Shown here piece by piece: positions 15,019 through 52,298 of a stretch of DNA of 64,000 nt. The stretch spans positions 3,325 through 67,324 of the forward strand of contig CAIVDK010000139.1 of NCBI GenBank assembly GCA_903904655.1. Direction: 5' to 3'. A program made the translations under genes and the position numbers. This stretch comes from an uncultured delta proteobacterium. Lineage in GTDB: Bacteria; Desulfobacterota; Syntrophia; Syntrophales; Smithellaceae. The stretch's first letter is position 1; each line of letters starts with the position of its first letter. The notes beneath the pieces were generated by a model. It worked only from the letters and a program-made list of their open reading frames with translations. It was not told the DNA's origin and did no database searches.

Positions 15019-17066
15019 TGGGGCGTCACCTGAACCTAATCATTTCAGCAGTCGTTCTTTCGATGCTGCTTGCAATCAGCGCAGGCGCGGAAAACCTCCG
15101 CCTGTCATGGCATCCGTCAGGGTATGGCGGGGGTGGGCGGTTTACAAACATTGCGATAGATCCATCGAATCCCAAAACCGTTTACGTCGGATCGGATGTT
15201 GCCGGAATTTACAGAAGCCGGGACGGCGGCAACCACTTTGAGCTGATCGGAAAAGGGCTGGAGGGTTTTGGCGTCGCGGATATCGCCATCAATCCGGCAG
15301 CCCCCCATCAGATTGTTGCCCTGACCGACGACGGTCTGTATTACAGCATCAATCAGGGCGACGGCTGGATTCGGATCTCCGGCGAAATCCGCTATCCTTC
15401 ACGGTTTTTTGGAAGCAGGCTGCTGCTCTTTACCCGAAACTCGCTGTGGATTGGGACCGACACAAAAGGGGTTTTCAAGATTCCTCTGAACAACCTGAAA
15501 GTCCCTCCGCAGCCGGTTCAGGGGCTGGAGCGTTTCAAGGTCAATGGGCTTACGGTGTATGAGGGATACTTGTACGCCGGAACGTCCCGCGGCGTTTATC
15601 GGATGGAGGGACAAGCCTGGAAGCCGCAGCATCAAGGACTTTTGCAGGGTTCAGTCGAGATTACCGATATCGCTTCTTCACGCAATTCCCTCTACCTGGT
15701 TGAAAAACAGGGCGGCCTGTTCCGATGGAATGCAACAACCCTCGCCTGGGAAAGCCGCCCAGTTTCACTGGAACCAAAAGCCAAGAGCTATAGAGCCCTT
15801 CTCGTTCATCCGAACAATCCGGACCTGGTATTCATCGGCTCGCATCCTGAAAACTGGCCGCATCTGCTTTACAAAACCCGGGATGGCGGAACCACCTGGA
15901 AATCCGTCCTCTCGTTTCAGGTCGATCCGGAAGCGCCTCCCAATTGGACCAACACCTTTTCAGGCCTCGAAGAAATGGCTTTTGTCCCGGGAACGCCCCA
16001 ATCCCTCTTTTTGGCGGACTGGTGGAATCTCTGGCAAACGGCTGACCATGGAGATCACTGGTATCAAAAGCATCATGGACTTCAGAACACGGTCATCAAT
16101 GACCTGAAGATGCATCCCCGGAACCCCAAAACCCTGTATCTGTGCGCCGCAGACAATGGCCTGATGATCTCGGATGATTCGGGAAAAAAGTGGAGACGGG
16201 CGATGAATGGCGTCGCCGACGGCCATGCCCAGGAAATTGAAATATTCCCAAGCGATCCTTCCCGGCTGGTCTTACTGATGAATCCCTGGGGCAAAAAGGG
16301 AAGAATCCATCTGTATGAATCCCGGAACGCCGGAGCAACCTGGAAGGATATCGGGTTTCCTGTGCCACTGGAAACCCTTCCCAAGCGGGGATATGTCGAT
16401 GGGCTCGCAACCAATGTGGAACTGGACCCTCTCTCTGATGACACGATTTATGTGGGAACCAATGGACATGGAGTATATAAAACCGTCAATGCCGGGAAAA
16501 ACTGGGCTCCGATGAATCAGGGACTGACAACACCCTATATCAAGGGACCGGGAGCATTGCTGGTTCATCCCCGACTCCCCGGCGTACTATTTGCCAGCAC
16601 GCAGGCGGGCGGTATTTACAAATCTACAAATGGCGCAAGCTCCTGGCAGCGCGTTACAACAGGAGGAGAACGATTTACGTTTGGCATGGCGATAGATCCT
16701 TCAACGCCCTCCCGAATTGTGGCAGGATGCGCCGGAAATACGATCCTGATCTCAAACAATGATGGGAAAAGCTGGCAGGAAATCCACCTTCCCGTGACCG
16801 CATCTCCTCAAATGGCCGTATACAGCGTAGCCTTCCACCTCCGGCGCCCGGGGCTGGTTTTGGCCGGAACGACTCGCTATGATGTCAGGGCGACCGAAGG
16901 GCTCTTTATCAGCACAGACAGCGCAAAAACGTTTCGGCAGGTTCCGATGGATCTTCCAAAGGTGAACATGACGGTCATCACCTCCACGGCGGACGAGCCG
17001 GCCGCAGCATATATCGGATTCAATGGGACCGGACTTTTTCGAATAGAGTTGGGAGAAAAACCTTAA
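15018..17066 (+). CDS. Secreted BNR/Asp-box repeat beta-propeller protein (sialidase/GH74/Ycf48-like fold)
   Basis: Signal peptide, then at least 8 S-x-D-x-G-x-T-W-like boxes: SRDGGNHF, TRDGGTTWKS, SDDSGKKWRR, SRNAGATWKD, VNAGKNWAP, STNGASSWQR, NNDGKSWQE, STDSAKTFRQ. Confidence 0.75.
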   Translation: MGRHLNLIISAVVLSMLLAISAGAENLRLSWHPSGYGGGGRFTNIAIDPSNPKTVYVGSDVAGIYRSRDGGNHFELIGKGLEGFGVADIAINPAAPHQIVALTDDGLYYSINQGDGWIRISGEIRYPSRFFGSRLLLFTRNSLWIGTDTKGVFKIPLNNLKVPPQPVQGLERFKVNGLTVYEGYLYAGTSRGVYRMEGQAWKPQHQGLLQGSVEITDIASSRNSLYLVEKQGGLFRWNATTLAWESRPVSLEPKAKSYRALLVHPNNPDLVFIGSHPENWPHLLYKTRDGGTTWKSVLSFQVDPEAPPNWTNTFSGLEEMAFVPGTPQSLFLADWWNLWQTADHGDHWYQKHHGLQNTVINDLKMHPRNPKTLYLCAADNGLMISDDSGKKWRRAMNGVADGHAQEIEIFPSDPSRLVLLMNPWGKKGRIHLYESRNAGATWKDIGFPVPLETLPKRGYVDGLATNVELDPLSDDTIYVGTNGHGVYKTVNAGKNWAPMNQGLTTPYIKGPGALLVHPRLPGVLFASTQAGGIYKSTNGASSWQRVTTGGERFTFGMAIDPSTPSRIVAGCAGNTILISNNDGKSWQEIHLPVTASPQMAVYSVAFHLRRPGLVLAGTTRYDVRATEGLFISTDSAKTFRQVPMDLPKVNMTVITSTADEPAAAYIGFNGTGLFRIELGEKP

Positions 17067-18458
17067 ATGCAGATCGTCTTTTGTAATAAATATTTTTTTT
17101 TAAACGGCGGTGTCGAAAAATATCTTTATGATGTTATGACTTACCTCTCGGCCAGGGGGCATACGACCATTCCTTTCAGCGTCCGTTATGCCGGAACCTG
17201 GCCTTCTCCCTATCAGGACTATTTTCTGGCGCCTCCCGGAGACCCTGAACAGGCGCTTTGGGCAAACATCCGGTTTTCCCCTGCCAATATTCTGAGATTT
17301 CTGGACAGAAGTACCTACTCCTTTGAAGCCAGAATAAAATTGAGCCGGCTACTGACAGCGTTTCCCGGAACGGACATCGCCTATATCCTGAACATCTATA
17401 ACTACATGTCTCCAAGCATCATCCACACGCTCAGGCGTCATCACATCCCCGTGGTGATGCAGATCGGCGATTATAATCTGCTTTGTCCCAGCTATTCACT
17501 GCTGCGGGATGGCAGGCCTTGTACGCTCTGCGTTCGGGGACAATATTATCATGGACTCCAGCACCGGTGTGTGAAGAATAATCTGGCCGCTTCCGCGGTT
17601 CGGGTTGCAGCCATGTATATCCAGCGCTTGCTCGGATTGTATGAACTGGTGGATGCCTTTGTCGTACCTTGTGAGTTCATGAAAGACAAACTGCTCGAAG
17701 GCGGTGTTTCCAAACACAAGACGCATGTGTTGTATTATCCGATTGAAAGAAGACAGGGAAAGAGAAAAAGAAAAGGGGAGAGAGCAGGAGAGGGTAGGAG
17801 AGCAGGAGAGAGAAAGAGCGAAGCAGACGCGCGTGAAGATCGGTTTCATGTGCTGAAGTATCCCATTGAAAGAACCGTTGATCCGGATAAGGACTGGCAT
17901 AAAAAAGACTATATTCTCTATTTTGGTAGATTATCTTATGAAAAAGGAATAGACACCTTGATCGGCGCATTTCAGAAGCTGAATCCGCCGATAGACCTTT
18001 ATATCATCGGCCGAAGTTACGATGGAGAAGAGGAACGCCTGAAACGGCTTATTTTGCCTCATGTGCAAAACCGCATCCATTTTCTGGGATTTCAGTCTGG
18101 GCAAACCCTGATGCGCTGGATTGCGGAAGCTCTGTTCAGTGTGGTACCCAGCCGCTGGTATGACAATGCGCCGATCAGCACATATGAGAGCTTCATGAAT
18201 GGAACACCGGTTCTGGCGTCCCGCATCGGCGGAATTCCCGAGCAGATCGAGGAAGGGGTGACCGGGCGATTGTTTGAACCGGACTCCTGTGAGGACCTGG
18301 CGCAGAAAATGGACGAGATGCTCGCGAACAGGGATCAACTGCTGCAAATGGGAATCGCAGGTCAGGCCTATGTCAAAAAAACGCTGCTTATCAATGATCA
18401 AATGGACAGCCTGATGAACTTGTTTGAAACCGTTATTGCTGATTACAAACGGAGATAG
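17067..18458 (+). CDS. Glycosyltransferase family 4 carrying an in-frame charged insertion
   Basis: N-terminal GT4-like domain. C-terminal motifs YILYFGRLSYEKGIDTL and VVPSRWYDNAPISTYESFMNGTPVLASRIGGIPE. The 41-aa insert RRQGKRKRKGERAGEGRRAGERKSEADAREDRF... lies between the duplicated HVLYYPIER and HVLKYPIER. Confidence 0.8.
   Translation: MQIVFCNKYFFLNGGVEKYLYDVMTYLSARGHTTIPFSVRYAGTWPSPYQDYFLAPPGDPEQALWANIRFSPANILRFLDRSTYSFEARIKLSRLLTAFPGTDIAYILNIYNYMSPSIIHTLRRHHIPVVMQIGDYNLLCPSYSLLRDGRPCTLCVRGQYYHGLQHRCVKNNLAASAVRVAAMYIQRLLGLYELVDAFVVPCEFMKDKLLEGGVSKHKTHVLYYPIERRQGKRKRKGERAGEGRRAGERKSEADAREDRFHVLKYPIERTVDPDKDWHKKDYILYFGRLSYEKGIDTLIGAFQKLNPPIDLYIIGRSYDGEEERLKRLILPHVQNRIHFLGFQSGQTLMRWIAEALFSVVPSRWYDNAPISTYESFMNGTPVLASRIGGIPEQIEEGVTGRLFEPDSCEDLAQKMDEMLANRDQLLQMGIAGQAYVKKTLLINDQMDSLMNLFETVIADYKRR
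17724..17874. repeat. 28-bp imperfect direct repeats (period 123 bp) flanking a polypurine tract of about 85 nt
   Basis: catgtgttgtattatccgattgaaagaa (17724-17751) versus catgtgctgaagtatcccattgaaagaa (17847-17874). The intervening + strand is almost entirely G/A (agggaaagagaaaaagaaaaggggagagagcaggagagggtaggagagcaggagagagaaagagcgaag). Confidence 0.85.
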
Positions 18459-18462
18459 CGCT

Positions 18463-19584
18463 ATGGTCAATCCCCAGAAAACCCGCGTTGCCGTTCTGGT
18501 ATCCTTACTGACCATCGGCGGCGCCGAGCAGTTGCTGCTGGAGCTGCTGCGTCATATTGACCGGCAGCGCTTTGAACTGCACATTTTCTTTTTAAGAGAA
18601 CCGGGACTTGTGGGGAAAGAGGTGCTGCAATTGGGGTTTCCGGTAACCACTGAAATCATTCGATCCAAATTTGACCTGTCCGGAATTTTCAGGCTGGCAA
18701 GGCTTCTGAAAGAGAATAAAACGGATGTTATTTTTCTGATCAATCACCTCAACACCCTCTTCTTTGGCGTTCTGGCGGCCAAGCTGGCAGGTGTCCGGTC
18801 CTGCATCAACTGGGAGAACGAAACGTATAAGAAATACCCCTTTCACAAGCTGACCATGCTGGGGCGACGCATCCTGCACCTGGGCATTGATTATGTTGTG
18901 GCTGCGGCAAAGGGGCATGGCGACTATATTGCCGCCGAAGAGAAAATACCTTACGCCAAGATCCGGGTTATTTATAACGGTGTGGATCCGGAGCGGTTTC
19001 AATCATCGCTAAGTCCGGGGGAGGCCCGTAAACGCCTGGGAATACCGCCGGAAAGCCCCGTGGTCAGTATCGTAGCGGCGCTCAGGCCGGACAAGGCCCA
19101 TCATGTGTTCCTGCAGGCCGCCCGATTGGTTGTGGATGCCATCCCCGAATCCCATTTTCTGGTGATTGGCGACGGTCCCCAAATGCCCTTTCTGAAAACC
19201 CTTGCCCTGGAGTTGCATATCGAAAAGCAGGTCCATTTTATGGGATTCCAGCGCCAGCTCGGGGATATTTTTGCAGCGATCGACATTAACTGCCTGTCGT
19301 CCTATCCCCAGCAGGAAACGCTTTCTGTCGCTGCGATCGAAGCCATGTCCGCCGGCATTCCCATGATCTGCACGGATGTCGGCTTTATGAATGAAATCGT
19401 GATTCCCGATGAAACCGGCTTTCTGGTTCCTGTGGACGACCCGGTCGGCCTGGCAGAAAAATTAATCCATGTGCTGAAAAACCCCGAACAGCAAAAATAT
19501 ATGGGCAATCAGGCCCGGAAACTGGTGAACGAAACCCTCAGCGTTCACCAGATGGCGAGAGCCTTTGAGCAGTTGATGACATGA
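18463..19584 (+). CDS. Glycosyltransferase family 4
   Basis: ATG at 18463 (GGAGA upstream, 4 nt after the previous stop). VAVLVSLLTIGGAEQLLLEL N-terminal motif. CLSSYPQQETLSVAAIEAMSAGIPMICTDVG C-terminal motif. Confidence 0.85.
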   Translation: MVNPQKTRVAVLVSLLTIGGAEQLLLELLRHIDRQRFELHIFFLREPGLVGKEVLQLGFPVTTEIIRSKFDLSGIFRLARLLKENKTDVIFLINHLNTLFFGVLAAKLAGVRSCINWENETYKKYPFHKLTMLGRRILHLGIDYVVAAAKGHGDYIAAEEKIPYAKIRVIYNGVDPERFQSSLSPGEARKRLGIPPESPVVSIVAALRPDKAHHVFLQAARLVVDAIPESHFLVIGDGPQMPFLKTLALELHIEKQVHFMGFQRQLGDIFAAIDINCLSSYPQQETLSVAAIEAMSAGIPMICTDVGFMNEIVIPDETGFLVPVDDPVGLAEKLIHVLKNPEQQKYMGNQARKLVNETLSVHQMARAFEQLMT

Positions 19585-20630
19585 TGAAAAATTCTCTTCG
19601 AGCGTTGCTGCTGGTGGACTGGATACCAGAGAAGGATGCGTTACTTCTCGATTCCTTGCGAAAAACCGGTCTCGACTGCGACATTATGGGGATCGACTTT
19701 CACCAATCCAGATGGACGCCCATCAATAAAATTTTCTCCCATTGGCCCAAGTGCCTCTGGGTTAGTATAAAAGCATATCGAAAGCGTCACGACTATGATT
19801 ATATGCTTGCCTGGTCGCAAATCATCGGGACTTTCCTGGGAATGATCAAATTCATAACGCGTTCAAATATTCCAAAAGTATTTATATTGGAAGCCGTCGT
19901 TGTTGAACGTGACAATCCGATACTGGAAAAATTTCGCAGGTGGTTTATTGCGACATCCTGGATAAGGGTCAATCATATCGGTTTGATGTCCAATGCCTAT
20001 AAGTGTTTAATTCAGGAGCGATTCAAGCTTCAAGAATGTCAATGCGTGCATCTGAAATCGCCGCTGATCATTGAAAAAAATAATGATTTTATCGGGTTTA
20101 AGGCTGGAAGTTATCTGTATTCCGCAGGCAGAAGCTATCGAGATTACCGGACCCTCATGGAGGCAGCCAAGAAAAGCAAATATCACTTCGTTGTGGCCAC
20201 ATCGGATGATGCCCTTCAGGGATTGATCATACCGGATAATGTGACGGTATATCGAAACACGTTTGGTCAGGAAGCGGACAAGTTGCTAAAAGAGGCTGCA
20301 GCGGTGATCATTCCGTTGGACAGAACAACGTCCCCGGCAGGCGATCTGACATTAACGGAAGCCATGTATTACGGAAAGCCAGCCATCATCACGGAAACTC
20401 TCATCACCCAGGAATATATTGTGCATGGGAAAAACGGCTTTCTGGTTCCCTGGAAAAATCCCGATGCTATTGTCGATGCCGTGAATGTCATTTTCTCTGA
20501 TCCGGAAAAAGCCGATTTCATCGGACGCATGGCCAGACAGACGGTGGTGGAAAATCATACCCTTGATATTTTTTCACGTCATATAGCGGATGTCATTAAA
20601 AATGATATTTATGGAGAAGAATCTATATGA
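19581..20630 (+). CDS. Glycosyltransferase (GT-B, GT1/GT4-like C-domain)
   Basis: ATGA overlap with the upstream gene. C-terminal half GDLTLTEAMYYGKPAIITETLITQEYIVHGKNGFLVP resembles the GT1 donor-binding domain. Same length (349 aa) and architecture as the next gene. Confidence 0.6.
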   Translation: MMKNSLRALLLVDWIPEKDALLLDSLRKTGLDCDIMGIDFHQSRWTPINKIFSHWPKCLWVSIKAYRKRHDYDYMLAWSQIIGTFLGMIKFITRSNIPKVFILEAVVVERDNPILEKFRRWFIATSWIRVNHIGLMSNAYKCLIQERFKLQECQCVHLKSPLIIEKNNDFIGFKAGSYLYSAGRSYRDYRTLMEAAKKSKYHFVVATSDDALQGLIIPDNVTVYRNTFGQEADKLLKEAAAVIIPLDRTTSPAGDLTLTEAMYYGKPAIITETLITQEYIVHGKNGFLVPWKNPDAIVDAVNVIFSDPEKADFIGRMARQTVVENHTLDIFSRHIADVIKNDIYGEESI

Positions 20631-40793: not shown

Positions 40794-41559
40794 AATCATT
40801 GTGGTCATGCCTGCCTACAATGCAGCTCAAACACTTCGCGCAACTTATGACGAAGTTATGGCGCAAAACATTGTCGACAGGATTATCCTGGTAGATGATG
40901 GCAGCACCGATGCAACTCTATCCATTGCCCAAACCCTGCCTAACACACTTGTCTATCAGCACAAACAAAATATGGGTTATGGCGCCAATCAAAAATCCTG
41001 TTACGATCTGGCGCTTAAAGAAGGCGCAGACATTGTCATCATGGTTCATCCGGATTCCCAGTATACGCCAAAACTGATACCGGCCATGGCTTCATTAATC
41101 GCCAGCGGCCTTTATGAATGTGTGTTGGGTTCCAGAATACTAGGCGGATATGCACTAAAAGGCGGAATGCCGGTGTGGCGATATATTGCCAATCGATTTC
41201 TTACGTTTATTGAAAATATTTTTTTGGGGGCAAAACTTTCCGAATATCACAGCGGCTACAGGGCATTTTCCAGAAGCCTTCTGGAGAAGCTTCCGATGAA
41301 AGAAAATTCAGATGATTTTGTGTTCGACAATCAGATGCTGGCTCAGATCATATGGCTAGGCTATACCGTGGCAGAAGTGAGCTGCCCGACTAAATATTTT
41401 CCAGAAGCCTCTTCTATCAATTTCTTCCGGTCCATTCAGTATGGCTGGGGATGCTTGCAGGTATCTTTATCGTATCGCCTTTCTAAACTAAACCTAATTT
41501 CAACGCCGCGATTTCCCAAGCTTTCTAACAAAAAGGAAACCTCCAATAAAGACTTATGA
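40777..41559 (+). CDS. GT2 polyprenyl-phosphate sugar synthase (Dpm1/Ppm1-like, soluble)
   Basis: IIVVMPAYNAAQTL...IILVDDGSTDAT...VMVHPDSQY. 260 aa without C-terminal TM helices. 17-nt overlap with the GT87 gene and 4-nt overlap with the next gene. Confidence 0.85.
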   Translation: MLNLHKIIVVMPAYNAAQTLRATYDEVMAQNIVDRIILVDDGSTDATLSIAQTLPNTLVYQHKQNMGYGANQKSCYDLALKEGADIVIMVHPDSQYTPKLIPAMASLIASGLYECVLGSRILGGYALKGGMPVWRYIANRFLTFIENIFLGAKLSEYHSGYRAFSRSLLEKLPMKENSDDFVFDNQMLAQIIWLGYTVAEVSCPTKYFPEASSINFFRSIQYGWGCLQVSLSYRLSKLNLISTPRFPKLSNKKETSNKDL

Positions 41560-43856
41560 GGCTGAAGCATTTCATTCCGCAGATTGAGAGAAACAATCCG
41601 TTGTTCTGGACAGTGTTATTGGGATTCGCCCCATGGCTGTTGGTGCCGCTGGCCTATGGCAAATGGGGTGTGGCTGCATCAATCGTTTTTATGTCCGTTT
41701 CTATCGCCGGACTTGGCTTTTTAACCTTATTTTGCTTCGGATTTTTTGATGACCGTCCCTCCTTGAGAATTGTTTTTTCATTGGGCACGGGGGTGATTGT
41801 CCAGAGTGGGTTTTTCTACTTTGCCGTTCGCTTTGGATTTAATAGTTTTCTGCTATATTGGAGCATCTGCGCGTTGGGCGGAATGGGGGCAGTCCTTCTG
41901 ATCCGATCATTGTGGCAAAAACCAAAAGGCGTATTAGACAGTCGGCGTCTGTGGTACTTGGTACTTATTTCAATCGTTGTTTGCCTATCCTATTTTATGA
42001 CAGATATTCGGAAAAACCATGTGAATACTCAAGATAATGGTTATTCATTTTTGCATCCGGACTCAACCTTCAATATGACTGTTGCCGCTGCTATCAAGAA
42101 CGGTGTTACACCCTGGAACCCTCTATCAGGTGAAGTCCCTCTCGCGTATCACTATGGTTCCCATAGCATTGCCGGGTCCCATGCAAAAGTCACGGGGACA
42201 AGCCTTGGTGATGGATTGTTGGCTTTGGCAGGTGTCGGGCTGATAGCCCTTTTGAGTGCATCCGTGGGTTTGGCAGCGCTTGTGACGCGGATGTACGGCG
42301 GAGATCCCATAATAGGTCCCATTGTAGGTGGAGCTTCAGTATTTCTTTACGATATAGCGAAAATCTTACGGGTAGGTTTCCGTTTTGTGGTCAAAGTCTC
42401 AGGCTTCAGTGTATCGGATTTTGGTGATATTACTTTTTGGTCGGGTTCTGCAGGTCATTTTCTTTACACCCCGTTTTGGTCGGGCTCTACAGGGCATTTT
42501 TTTTACGGCCATTCGACTGTCTGGGGATCGATAGGATTGATCGTCATCTTGAGTTTGGCGCTTTGGCATTGGGACAAAAAGGAGGAGGGGTCTAGCTGGT
42601 GCGATGCATCGGCTTTGTCATTTCTTTCAGTGCTCGTTTTCCCACTCAACGTGTTTGCCGGCATTGCTGTTAGCGGAACCCTGGCAGCGGTCGCGCTCAT
42701 TCGCAGCATAAAACATTGGGAAAGCTGGTTTTTTGCTACCATCATCGTAAGCACTTCGATTGGAATTCTTTGGGCCATGGGTGTGACCGAAGGCCAAGCT
42801 TTGAGCGATGCCGCGGCAGTTTTGCAGAACAATAGTCCGCTGATCAGCTTATTAGCTTCATCTGCGGAACGTACGGCAACTCTTTTCTGGGTATTTCTTG
42901 GATTTGGTGTGGGATTAGTGCCGATGGGAATGATTTTTTCTAAGCATCGGTGTCTTTTGGCGCAGATATCGCTGGTACTTGCGACAGGCGGATTTATTTT
43001 TCCATCTCTTTTCGATATGGATATTTATGCAAATAATCTTTATTTTCTCCGTTTCTTTTTCCATTTTTCAGTTGTATGTGCCATGGCGATTTTGAGCAGA
43101 GGATTCCGCGAATGGATAGAAAGCCAGGGGGCAGTCATTTTCATTGAACAACCCATAAGGGTATGGCGCGTTATTGCTTTTGTCTCACTCATCTTTCTGG
43201 CCAGTCAAATGTGCGGATGGGCTATTTCGCTGGAGGGGGTTCATCCATTTTATGATGGGATCGTAAGAATTTCTACACCTCTTTTAATGGCAATCCTCAG
43301 TTTTTGGCTATGGAAAAATATCAAATGGTCTGTAGCTGCACGCACCGTTTCACTGATGATTCTGGCATTCATCATTTTACTCCAAATAGCAGGCACAGCC
43401 AGGCAAATTTATATATATGCGTTCAAGATGCCTTTGATAAGCAACAATCCTCTTCTGGTACTCGATTCGAATGAACTGAAAGGATTAAATCGCCTTCGCT
43501 CCGTTTCAGACCCAGGTGACTTATGTGCGACAAATCGTAATTTAAACGGAGATCGAAACTTAATAGGCATTGGTGCAACATTTCAGCTTTTGTATTCACC
43601 GCTCTCAGAGCGACGCTTCCTTATTGAAACGCCATTTCCTTTTGCCAAGATTGGCTCAGAAGAGGTTCGATCAGACAATAAACTCCTGTTTGAAAGCAGC
43701 GATGCAGAAGCTATGCGTTATGTCACCAATAAGTACAGGATACGGTACCTCGTCTGCGCACCGGGAACAGATCTTGCCTTGACAATAAACCTGCCGCCGT
43801 GGTTATATCGAGTTCCAGATACTGGATCGTTGAAAATCTATGAGGTTCGCACTTGA
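41556..43856 (+). CDS. Large polytopic membrane protein, putative GT-C-type glycosyltransferase (function unknown)
   Basis: 766 aa with 15 or more hydrophobic helices. FFDDRPS acidic pair follows an early TM helix. Soluble C-terminal region ends ...GSLKIYEVRT, as in many ArnT/PMT-like proteins. The CDS is secure; the function is inferred. Confidence 0.5.
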   Translation: MRLKHFIPQIERNNPLFWTVLLGFAPWLLVPLAYGKWGVAASIVFMSVSIAGLGFLTLFCFGFFDDRPSLRIVFSLGTGVIVQSGFFYFAVRFGFNSFLLYWSICALGGMGAVLLIRSLWQKPKGVLDSRRLWYLVLISIVVCLSYFMTDIRKNHVNTQDNGYSFLHPDSTFNMTVAAAIKNGVTPWNPLSGEVPLAYHYGSHSIAGSHAKVTGTSLGDGLLALAGVGLIALLSASVGLAALVTRMYGGDPIIGPIVGGASVFLYDIAKILRVGFRFVVKVSGFSVSDFGDITFWSGSAGHFLYTPFWSGSTGHFFYGHSTVWGSIGLIVILSLALWHWDKKEEGSSWCDASALSFLSVLVFPLNVFAGIAVSGTLAAVALIRSIKHWESWFFATIIVSTSIGILWAMGVTEGQALSDAAAVLQNNSPLISLLASSAERTATLFWVFLGFGVGLVPMGMIFSKHRCLLAQISLVLATGGFIFPSLFDMDIYANNLYFLRFFFHFSVVCAMAILSRGFREWIESQGAVIFIEQPIRVWRVIAFVSLIFLASQMCGWAISLEGVHPFYDGIVRISTPLLMAILSFWLWKNIKWSVAARTVSLMILAFIILLQIAGTARQIYIYAFKMPLISNNPLLVLDSNELKGLNRLRSVSDPGDLCATNRNLNGDRNLIGIGATFQLLYSPLSERRFLIETPFPFAKIGSEEVRSDNKLLFESSDAEAMRYVTNKYRIRYLVCAPGTDLALTINLPPWLYRVPDTGSLKIYEVRT
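42435..42512 (+). repeat. 39-bp in-frame tandem duplication (FWSGSAGHFLYTP / FWSGSTGHFFYGH)
   Basis: ttttggtcgggttctgcaggtcattttctttacaccccg is followed by ttttggtcgggctctacagggcatttttttacggccat. Confidence 0.9.
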
Positions 43857-51221: not shown

Positions 51222-51971
51222 TTGATGATGAGGGAAACTTTTAAACAATCCATTATAGCATTTTTGAAGCCTCAGGTTACTGCTTGGGGTTTCGCATCGG
51301 TTGATCGTTTTGCAGATGCGCCTGAAGCACATCACCCAAAACGAATTTGCCGGGACGCTGAAACTGTAATTGTTTTCGGCATTACCGTTCCCCGTGGCAT
51401 GCTCAAATCACCGGATTACAATCTTTACGCTCTGCACCGGACCTACCACAGCGCTTATATGCGCATCGACGATATATCCCTCGCCCTTTGCAATTATATT
51501 GAATCCCTAGGAAAATGTCTGGCCGTCCCTATTCCCAGCTATGCCCCGATGGTTTTTCATCAATTTGAACCCTGGGGCATCATGTCGCTGAAACACGCCG
51601 CCGTCAATGCAGGCCTGGGAAGTTTCGGACGGAGCGGCCTGACCTATCATCCGCAATACGGCGCGCTTTTGCGATTGGGTGCAGTCGTGACAAACACGGT
51701 GATCGAAGCAGACGCACTGCTTCCTCCTGATCCTTGTCCCCCCAACTGCACGGCCTGCTTAAAGATCTGTCCGGCCAAAGCCTTTGACGCGGACGGAAAA
51801 TTCAATAAAATGACCTGCCTTAGTCGTACAATCAAGCATGCCATTTATCCCCTCGCCCTGAATAGTGAAGCGGGTTTGAAAAATATTGAGCGTGTCATCA
51901 ACACGGCCGGACACAATTACTGGATCGATTGTGATGAATGCCTGAAGGTTTGCCCGTTAAATAAAGGGTGA
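51222..51971 (+). CDS. 4Fe-4S dicluster protein, QueG/reductive-dehalogenase-superfamily-like
   Basis: SLKHAAVNAGLGSFGRSGL resembles the QueG core. Two Cys clusters: CPPNCTACLKICP and CDECLKVCP. At 249 aa it is shorter than canonical QueG. Confidence 0.55.
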   Translation: MMMRETFKQSIIAFLKPQVTAWGFASVDRFADAPEAHHPKRICRDAETVIVFGITVPRGMLKSPDYNLYALHRTYHSAYMRIDDISLALCNYIESLGKCLAVPIPSYAPMVFHQFEPWGIMSLKHAAVNAGLGSFGRSGLTYHPQYGALLRLGAVVTNTVIEADALLPPDPCPPNCTACLKICPAKAFDADGKFNKMTCLSRTIKHAIYPLALNSEAGLKNIERVINTAGHNYWIDCDECLKVCPLNKG

Positions 51972-52298
51972 CTATTTTAAGGGTTTACCGCACTCCTTGC
52001 ACTTGCCGTCCGGGCCGATAATACCGATGCAGGCGCTGTCGCTGCATAATACTCTTTTGTCCCAATCGTCATCAGAATCTGTGTCTTCCGGCGAAACAGA
52101 CTTTGCTTCTTCAGTGGCGGCAGGTTGAACAGCCTCTCTACCGTGGCCTTCCGGAAGAACCCCTTCGTAAGGCTTGCCGCACTCTTTGCATTTTCCGTCC
52201 GGACCGATAGTGCCGATGCAGGACTCATCACTGCACAAAACCCGCGCATCCCAATCTACGTTCTCGTCAAAGATGATTTCACTCATGCTGTTCTCCAA
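51972..52298 (-). CDS. Small acidic protein with two identical-pattern zinc ribbons
   Basis: WDARVLCSDESCIGTIGPDGKCKECGKP and WDKRVLCSDSACIGIIGPDGKCKECGKP (C-x4-C-x9-C-x2-C twice) joined by an acidic linker. Its stop abuts the stop of the convergent gene. Confidence 0.6.
   Translation of the reverse strand: MENSMSEIIFDENVDWDARVLCSDESCIGTIGPDGKCKECGKPYEGVLPEGHGREAVQPAATEEAKSVSPEDTDSDDDWDKRVLCSDSACIGIIGPDGKCKECGKPLK

Follow-up and report, generated by a model that had tools for sequence, protein, structure and literature searches.

We analyzed a 64,000-nt stretch of the contig CAIVDK010000139.1 from an uncultured delta proteobacterium of the Smithellaceae (assembly GCA_903904655.1), hereafter called the window, which carries a polysaccharide-biosynthesis locus with a Wza-like exporter upstream. 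The open reading frame (ORF) at 17067-18458 of the + strand in this locus encodes a glycosyltransferase (GT) of 463 amino acids that was assigned to family GT4 with a GT-B fold by Pfam, AlphaFold, and Foldseek. The linker between its two domains contains an Arg-rich insert, which is encoded by a polypurine tract and is bracketed by two copies of a short direct repeat. Our best explanation, to which we give a probability of roughly 78%, is that an ancient in-frame duplication-plus-insertion of single origin in the interdomain linker of a Smithellaceae/Syntrophales-type GT4 enzyme produced a loop that is translated, selected, disordered, and basic.

The GT4 gene and its hinge insert

The 463-aa protein passed the Pfam gathering cut-offs of PF00534 (Glycos_transf_1; 107.5 bits against a cut-off of 26.4, aa 278-432) and PF13439 (Glyco_transf_4; 43.9 bits against 28.5), and PF13579 (Glyco_trans_4_4), which spans aa 14-224, scored 26.6 bits, under its cut-off of 29.7. 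The N-terminal Rossmann-like domain (aa 1-228; 17067-17750, + strand) includes the latter span. The C-terminal, donor-binding Rossmann-like domain (aa 270-463; 17875-18455, + strand) includes the PF00534 match, the GRxxxEKG loop, and the D366-x7-E374 motif. G287, R288, E292, K293, G294, and D366 are invariant in the family and E374 is nearly so, and the window protein keeps all of the family-invariant residues. D366 and E374 fall on the E-x7-E motif of 6kih in the alignment, with Asp in place of the first Glu family-wide. Since no NCBIfam model reached its cut-off (the best was EpsE, 59 bits against 400), we give the enzyme no more specific name.

The direct repeat consists of CATGTGTTGTATTATCCGATTGAAAGAA (17724-17751) and CATGTGCTGAAGTATCCCATTGAAAGAA (17847-17874), which are identical at 24 of 28 positions, share a longest perfect identity of 11 nt, and start 123 nt, or 41 codons, apart in the same reading frame. 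As the original prediction had stated, their translations are HVLYYPIER and HVLKYPIER, and the intervening DNA specifies RQGKRKRKGERAGEGRRAGERKSEADAREDRF. Profile comparison indicated that the duplicated block is longer than these 9 residues and comprises ~13-14 aa (x-E-x-R-I-H-V-L-x-Y-P-I-E-R); the profiles of both copies were aligned by hhalign over 14 columns with E = 2e-8. The duplicated block is thus 27-42 nt or 9-14 codons in length. Copy 1 (aa 216-228; 17712-17750, + strand; KHKTHVLYYPIER), which contains 17724-17751, forms the end of the N-terminal domain. Copy 2 (aa 257-269; 17835-17873, + strand; EDRFHVLKYPIER) contains 17847-17874 and is nearer than copy 1 to the outgroup motif ERIHLLxYPV. 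Insert X lies between them (aa 229-256; 17751-17834, + strand; RQGKRKRKGERAGEGRRAGERKSEADAR); it is rich in Arg, Glu, Gly, and Lys, net basic, and predicted to be disordered. Repeats with at least 24 of 28 identities within 200 nt were found 3 times in the window, as against 0 in 30 first-order Markov simulations.

The polypurine tract (17745-17833, + strand) is ~89% purine and has its longest unbroken purine run, of 30 nt, at 17755-17784. The purine content was 89% over the 88 nt of 17748-17835, which confirms the value of about 90% over ~85 nt noted earlier, and reached a maximum of 92% in any 85-nt segment. When both strands of the 64-kb window were scanned for 85-nt segments with at least 75% purine, this tract was the only one found. 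An internal translation start was rejected as a designed feature. The in-frame GTG at 17850 lies ~38 nt past the last GGAGAG, too far for the latter to function as a Shine-Dalgarno sequence, and the frame opened by the ATG at 17848 differs from that of the gene and ends after two codons. The minus-strand ORFs at 17496-17900 and 17677-17970, which run through the tract, are Ser/Leu/Pro-rich strings, a mechanical product of the polypyrimidine complement.

The AlphaFold2 model of the 463-aa protein, built on a 79-sequence alignment, had a predicted local distance difference test score (pLDDT) of 85, a predicted template modeling score of 0.84, and an alternating order of strands and helices in both halves. 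The pLDDT was below 50 only at residues 229-265. This segment is placed between the last strand of the N-terminal domain (219-221) and the first strand of the C-terminal domain (282-286), and short strands are modeled in copy 1 (226-228) and copy 2 (267-269). The insert also lies between the two Pfam domains, of which the N-terminal one extends to residue ~224 and the C-terminal one begins at residue ~278. The Pfam limits and the modeled strands bear out the claim that the insert sits at the hinge between two Rossmann-like halves, and the composition together with the low pLDDT upholds, as a prediction, that of a highly charged disordered loop. Foldseek against the PDB returned MshA, PimA, BshA, and PglA as top matches with a probability of 1.00, and sucrose-phosphate synthase was matched too. 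The model of the insert-less orthologue P0049 (422 aa) had the same order of secondary structures with a pLDDT of 90.7 and a confident linker. The insert is predicted to be a disordered loop added at the hinge to an otherwise complete GT-B fold, and the paired models show that it is dispensable for the modeled fold.

Conservation of the insert as a peptide

We retrieved 862 homologues out of 5.8 billion proteins and aligned the best 120 clusters (below, P-numbers denote homologue proteins, L-numbers loci or contigs, and WIN the window sequence). Among these 120, the homologous insert was present in ~60 orthologue clusters of 65-98% identity and 455-463 aa, including every cluster above 75% identity. 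All homologues with 57% identity or less lacked the insert and had a single ..RIHLLxYPV.. motif. The consensus of the insert is YPVERRQG-x-R-[KR]-[KR]-x-G-[DE]-R-E-x-EGRR-x-GE-x-[KR]-S-x-ER-IHVLQYPIERT, in which EGRR is near-invariant over ~56 distinct sequences, being replaced by HGRR, VGRR, GGRR, or DERR in four sequences. In the codon alignment, the five codons encoding EADAR (17820-17834, + strand) were present only in the 463-aa forms (WIN, L001-L004, L011, and L015), the other loci having a gap.

Among species-representative genomes, 17 of 19 loci have the insert. These loci are from metagenome-assembled genomes (MAGs) labelled Smithellaceae, Syntrophaceae, Syntrophales, 'Desulfobacteraceae', or Deltaproteobacteria, and the closest ones, at 97-98% identity, are from Syntrophaceae/Smithellaceae MAGs. 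In every one of the 19, the genes run GalE / hypothetical / BNR-repeat protein / this GT4 / GT4 / GT / GT / OmpA, indicating that the genes are orthologues in a polysaccharide-biosynthesis locus. The claim of an insertion with a duplicated flank holds relative to the homologues of 57% identity or less with their single HLLxYPV motif. An alignment with orthologues had been proposed as a check that the insert is lineage-specific. It is so in that these distant homologues lack it; it is neither genome-specific nor recent, being present in ~60 clusters and 17 of the 19 loci.

To estimate selection, the proportions of synonymous (pS) and nonsynonymous (pN) differences were obtained as Nei-Gojobori counts over 16 loci. 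In insert X, pS was 0.69 and pN 0.25 (pN/pS 0.37). The values were 0.45 and 0.17 in repeat copy 1 (0.38) and 0.41 and 0.12 in repeat copy 2 (0.29), whose pN is the lowest in the region, and they were 0.53 and 0.09 in the N-terminal domain (0.17) and 0.54 and 0.11 in the C-terminal domain (0.21). The codon alignment revealed synonymous swaps between AGR and CGN and between GAA and GAG across the whole insert; EGRR, for example, is encoded by GAG GGT AGG AGA in the window and by GAA GGA CGC CGG in L010. The synonymous replacement and the pN/pS of 0.37 indicate that the segment is translated and is under purifying selection that is laxer than in the domains. Synonymous sites of the insert are unconstrained (pS 0.69, as against 0.53), and this speaks against any conserved element of DNA or RNA. 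A permissive Rfam search of 17000-18600 gave no match, and the insert strand had no DNA fold (-4.4 kcal/mol, z = +0.99). These sequence comparisons show that the insert is conserved as a peptide, with the core G-[DE]-R-x-x-EGRR-x-GE, and not as DNA. Across orthologues, insert X consists of 30% Arg, 18% Glu, 15% Gly, and 9% Lys. Its net charge has a mean of +4.8 and a range of 0 to +8 and is never negative, and its first 12 residues hold most of the positive charge.

The original prediction had left it open whether the enzyme retains activity. This is largely answered by the pN/pS of 0.17-0.21 in the two domains and the retention of every family-invariant residue. Given the strong purifying selection on the two domains in lineages that carry the insert and the retention of the invariant residues, the insert-bearing GT4 enzyme is very probably active.

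Origin of the insert and alternative readings

In a neighbor-joining tree, the insert-bearing sequences formed one clade, of which the basal member P0063 has the insert, and insert-less forms were nested inside. The nearest neighbors of the insert-less P0049/L009 (89%), P0048 (87%), and P0055 (82%) are insert-bearing, and other insert-less sequences are more distant from them than these neighbors. Such nesting beside insert-bearing sequences points to at least three independent precise losses, and P0060-62 and P0064 may be further losses. The insert would thus be of single phylogenetic origin and ancient, which is a part of the joint explanation given at the outset and shares its probability.

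Changes in length were also found. Partial deletions are present in L014/P0058 and in P0059, and P0054 has a 12-residue expansion. In the 67 insert-bearing orthologues, X (32 residues) falls into six length classes, as against one for each repeat copy, and the ~400 domain residues are essentially invariant in length. The 500-aa forms (P0012, P0199) contain two 126-nt units that are 79% identical and were found in 5 contigs with the same synteny. In the P0012 gene (L142 2173-2427; also P0195, P0196, and P0199), on contigs from different samples, this appears as a 42-codon unit, VERRW...IERTVA, present twice. The YP motif has decayed in the middle repeat copy of the 500-aa form (NPVPQHSIER), and the junction TVA|VERR indicates a separate tandem duplication and not an exchange between the repeat copies. 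Within clusters of 90% identity, by contrast, the lengths of full-length members were almost uniform: 463 aa in 8 members with one of 458, 460 in 9, 458 in 12, and 500 in 3. Since these members are from independent assemblies in four archives (NCBI, JGI, ENA, and Logan), the constant length excludes mis-assembly and argues against a high-frequency switch.

The purine fraction of the tract was 0.84, as against 0.713 ± 0.030 expected from the peptide and the codon usage of the window (P < 5e-5). Seven of 9 Arg codons in the tract are AGR, compared with 24% window-wide (p = 0.001), and at conserved Arg columns of 11 lineages the ratio of AGR to CGN was 46:27 inside X and 83:181 elsewhere in the same genes. 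In the most divergent lineages, L010/12/13, the purine fraction is down to 0.74-0.76 and Arg is mostly encoded by CGN. The purine excess beyond the amino-acid demand suggests an origin from purine-only simple sequence, and the simplest reading of these counts is that the new sequence began as almost pure purine. The polypurine character would then be partly peptide composition, as codons for Glu and Lys are all-purine, and partly a decaying relic seen in the excess of AGA/AGG for Arg. In the event proposed here, ~13 codons (..RIHLLxYPVER), comprising the last strand of the N-terminal domain and the start of the linker, would have been duplicated, and ~22-27 codons of new, near purine-only sequence would have been set between the two copies. 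The flank duplication and the insertion of filler or simple sequence would have been made together by slippage or template switching. Thereafter, AGR to CGN transversions would slowly erode the purine signature, and recombination or slippage involving the two copies would be the simplest route to the precise deletions. Tandem duplication as the source of the whole 36-41-codon unit was considered and is unsupported, as homology is confined to the last 14 columns.

Two assemblies depart from the pattern inside the tract. L020 1-60, from the JGI contig 3300045671, is identical to the window and breaks off inside the tract. L021 890-915, from a Logan contig of SRR27925880, has an A5 to A6 frameshift in the tract, which leaves a 239-aa ORF for the N-terminal domain and a 202-aa ORF for the C-terminal domain, the latter restarting at the GTG of repeat copy 2. 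The break and the frameshift may each be real or an error of sequencing or assembly, and they lie within the sequencing-error expectation for >100 assemblies. A bolder conjecture, going beyond the de novo reading given below, is that the GT-B halves might also work as separate polypeptides, as the frameshifted variant with its GTG restart suggests.

We take the insert to be an evolutionary curiosity rather than a transposable element, a switch at the DNA level, or an artefact of assembly. An artefact would mean that the 123-nt segment is a mis-join or a collapsed or expanded repeat. Purine sequence of low complexity can be difficult to assemble, and one contig ends within it, but the same or a near-identical 463-aa product is present in at least 8 independent NCBI, JGI, ENA, and Logan records, the segment is found in L001-L003 and L015 at 95-98% identity, and the frame is intact with coherent codon-level evolution across 17 loci. 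The artefact is effectively refuted by these records, and what probability it keeps is negligible. As the footprint of a mobile element, the insert would be a non-autonomous element or foreign cassette inserted in frame, the repeats being its target-site duplication. A direct repeat does bracket unrelated sequence here, and in-frame mobile repeats such as the Rickettsia palindromic elements are generally known. However, the DNA is single-copy in the 64-kb window with up to 3 mismatches allowed, and a tblastn search covering the window and the 19 orthologous loci (~200 kb in all) did not detect the peptide anywhere else. The insert lacks inverted repeats and, with z = +0.99, a hairpin. Target-site duplications of insertion sequences and miniature inverted-repeat transposable elements are typically 2-14 bp, far below the 27-42 nt of the duplicated block, and the single phylogenetic origin is a further point against mobility. 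The suggestion of target-site-duplication-like flanks is not sustained by these results, and the search for other copies of the polypurine segment came out negative in the window and the ~200 kb of orthologous flanks. We regard a mobile origin as highly improbable. Two broader searches bear on it little. A degenerate 36-nt pattern for G[DE]RxxEGRRxGE matched at least 120 stretches of metagenome contigs; among the matches listed, 6 were orthologous GT4 genes and the rest were chance or out-of-frame matches, many of which hold stops, and this is a weak test. A HMMER search with the 58-aa insert peptide among 1.84 billion representatives yielded no hits at E <= 0.001, its own family being missed as well. 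Because the query is too short and biased, this null result says nothing about a dispersed cassette. In the pattern search, ..HLHGEGEEGERGPEGRREGEAG.. was recurrent in L030, L034, L054, L063, L064, L067, L076, L082, L093, L100, L108, L113, L129, and L138 in a frame with stops; this sequence, which has no relation to the GT4 insert, evidently comes from a common gene read in the wrong frame.

The tract might alternatively be kept as a DNA-level element, either as H-DNA (triplex) or as a slippage or recombination hotspot that gives switchable isoforms in the manner of a contingency locus. The purine excess above the coding need, the clustering of indels in X, the L020 contig end, and the A5 to A6 frameshift of L021 are all in its favor. 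There is also a hint of concerted evolution: the identity between the repeat copies (17712-17750 and 17835-17873; L001-L019) was 0.736 within a genome and 0.702 between genomes (permutation p = 0.0065, 11 lineages), and the V/I codon of both copies is GTG, GTT, or ATT, depending on the clade. However, H-DNA takes mirror arms of ~10 nt or more, and the best arms in the tract are 8-9 nt with one mismatch, the 30-nt purine run not being mirror-symmetric. A phase-variable contingency locus takes a long perfect repeat whose length varies in populations, whereas the tract has only a degenerate GGAGAGAGCA periodicity of 8-10 nt over 17777-17812, a tandem repeat of 3.8 copies with 71% match (by Tandem Repeats Finder), and homopolymers of at most 5 nt. 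Synonymous divergence in X is not lowered, the unit length is constant in the 90%-identity clusters over dozens of independent assemblies, and one frameshift and one contig break in >100 assemblies fit error expectations. With at most 11 nt of perfect identity, the repeat copies are a poor recombination substrate. From the mirror-like H-DNA envisaged in the original prediction, the purine bias beyond the amino-acid need remains, and the arms and the unconserved DNA speak against the rest. The hotspot claim stands in so far as indels concentrate in the tract (six length classes) and fails in that length is stable in species-level clusters. A conserved DNA-level role is thus very improbable, though a little less so than a mobile origin.

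A further possibility is that the loop is a neutral passenger, that is, a low-complexity expansion tolerated at a permissive linker, whose conservation reflects limited time, composition, or a need for linker length. At least three losses with the locus and gene otherwise intact, the partial deletions in L014/P0058 and P0059, and the six length classes in X agree with this, as do the pN of 0.25 against 0.09-0.11 in the domains, the predicted disorder, and an insert-less orthologue that is modeled to fold equally well. On the other hand, pN/pS is 0.37, well under 1, with synonymous sites near saturation. The EGRR and G[DE]R / GE positions are near-invariant over ~56 sequences despite synonymous changes, the net positive charge is kept (mean +4.8, never negative), and orthologues of as little as 65% overall identity still have the insert. 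We consider a mere passenger possible but rather unlikely. Several points do weigh against our preferred explanation of a selected, disordered, basic loop of single origin. The tree is a simple one, calculated with the insert masked and without support values, and allele recombination could mimic multiple losses. The losses themselves, and a pN of the insert that is 2-3 times the domain pN, would suit a near-neutral passenger as well. Profile-profile alignment detected no similarity of the charged part to the upstream sequence or helix beyond the last 14 columns. The within-genome excess of copy identity could be occasional gene conversion or equally lineage-specific codon usage, the codon-bias tests count related lineages as independent, and low pLDDT is only a proxy for disorder. 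The electrostatic action of the basic loop, for which other GT-B enzymes are the model, is likewise no more than probable.

Under the preferred explanation of a selected basic loop, the loop might anchor the enzyme at the anionic inner leaflet of the membrane, bind the pyrophosphate of a lipid-linked acceptor, contact a partner in the polysaccharide assembly machinery, or tune the opening of the hinge. It appears to be dispensable for fitness in several lineages. A more far-reaching version, which we hold to be doubtful and still less likely than the passenger, is the de novo birth of a selected peptide module in a bacterial enzyme from purine-only simple sequence, recruited as a tether or regulator. 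Here, slippage or template switching would give purine-only sequence plus the flank duplication, whose default translation would yield an Arg/Lys/Glu/Gly polyampholyte. The GT-B hinge would then have acquired this peptide as a tether or regulator that works through charge, its EGRR core conserved and its net charge basic, and over evolution the module would remain a modular unit of 0, 1, or 2 copies. Full-text literature searches on charged or disordered GT-B linker insertions and on purine-rich low-complexity bacterial insertions turned up no account of it. The loop, if functional, would represent a novel type of GT-B accessory element, a disordered Arg-rich hinge insert as opposed to an amphipathic helix of the N-terminal domain. 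Orthologues with 0, 1, or 2 copies in the same gene neighborhood provide a natural comparison set. The locus would also be a documented example of purine-only simple sequence becoming a selected coding segment, with the decay of the AGA/AGG bias still visible. If the loop is only a tolerated passenger, it would be an ordinary lineage-specific indel. The case also cautions against taking every conspicuous intragenic polypurine tract flanked by direct repeats for a mobile element, a switch in the DNA, or a fault of assembly.

Comparison with known systems and other features of the window

The window enzyme resembles the retaining GT-B enzymes of CAZy family GT4, namely MshA (3C48/3C4Q), PimA (2GEJ), BshA (3MBO/5D00), PglA (8DQD), and sucrose-phosphate synthase (6KIH), in its two Rossmann-like domains with PF13439 and PF00534 (Foldseek E of 1e-15 to 1e-17), in the GRxxxEKG loop and an acidic-x7-E motif, and in its polysaccharide-locus context. 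It differs from them in the 36-41-residue Arg-rich loop with its duplicated flank, which is present in none of the matched structures, in the Asp (D366) of the E-x7-E motif, and in an invariant four-Cys insertion in the N-terminal domain. The latter residues, C140, C152, C155, and C168 (aa 140-168; window 17484-17570; LLCPSYSLLRDGRPCTLCVRGQYYHGLQHRCV), are invariant family-wide, including distant insert-less homologues. This insertion, which is non-standard for GT4, could be a zinc-binding knuckle.

PimA and WaaG are membrane-associated GT-B enzymes with amphipathic or basic helices in the N-terminal domain. With these and PglH, the window loop has in common a cluster of positive charge added to a GT-B scaffold, and such elements are the model for the electrostatic role considered above. 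Their elements are structured, amphipathic helices of the N-terminal domain, whereas the window loop is a Gly-rich polyampholyte at the hinge that lacks hydrophobic residues and is predicted to be disordered. In PglH, three basic side chains are described as binding the lipid-linked substrate through its pyrophosphate, and the ruler helix as attaching the enzyme to the membrane (PMC5792488).

Conserved signature indels are clade-specific conserved insertions in bacterial proteins. The window insert resembles them in that it has the same position throughout, conserved flanks, a monophyletic group of bearers, and no counterpart in outgroups. It is, however, unusually long, of low complexity, and accompanied by a duplicated flank, and because of several secondary losses and a duplication it is not a clean clade marker. 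With the Rickettsia palindromic elements, it shares a size of ~100-150 nt in frame, a tolerated surface or linker position, and an otherwise intact enzyme. Unlike them, it is non-palindromic and has no predicted structure, and it has one locus and one origin with no dispersed copies found in the loci searched. Simple-sequence contingency loci in GT genes include homopolymer or tetranucleotide tracts, as in the Neisseria lgt and Haemophilus lic genes. The window tract resembles these loci and H-DNA mirror repeats in being purine-rich simple sequence in a surface-polysaccharide GT gene with enriched indels. It differs in having no long perfect repeat, homopolymers of at most 5 nt, and mirror arms of 8-9 nt, and in being length-stable in species-level clusters, translated, and selected as a peptide.

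Variation was also seen at another gene of the polysaccharide locus. The GT two genes downstream (19581-20630, + strand) is only ~60% identical to its counterpart even in the closest relatives, L001-L003, where its neighbors are 88-98% identical. In these alignments it looks like an allelic replacement, that is, a variable cassette of the locus, and the polymer would then differ between strains. Elsewhere in the window, a 39-nt tandem direct repeat (42433-42510, + strand; 24 of 28 identities at best) in the 766-aa ORF at 41556-43856 encodes FWSGSAGHFLYTP and FWSGSTGHFFYG. In a small reading frame of the minus strand at ~51950-52290, the Cys-rich motif RVLCSDxxCIGxIGPDGKCKECGKP is present twice, 189 nt apart, and on the basis of this motif the pair is an internal duplication of a putative zinc-ribbon-like module.

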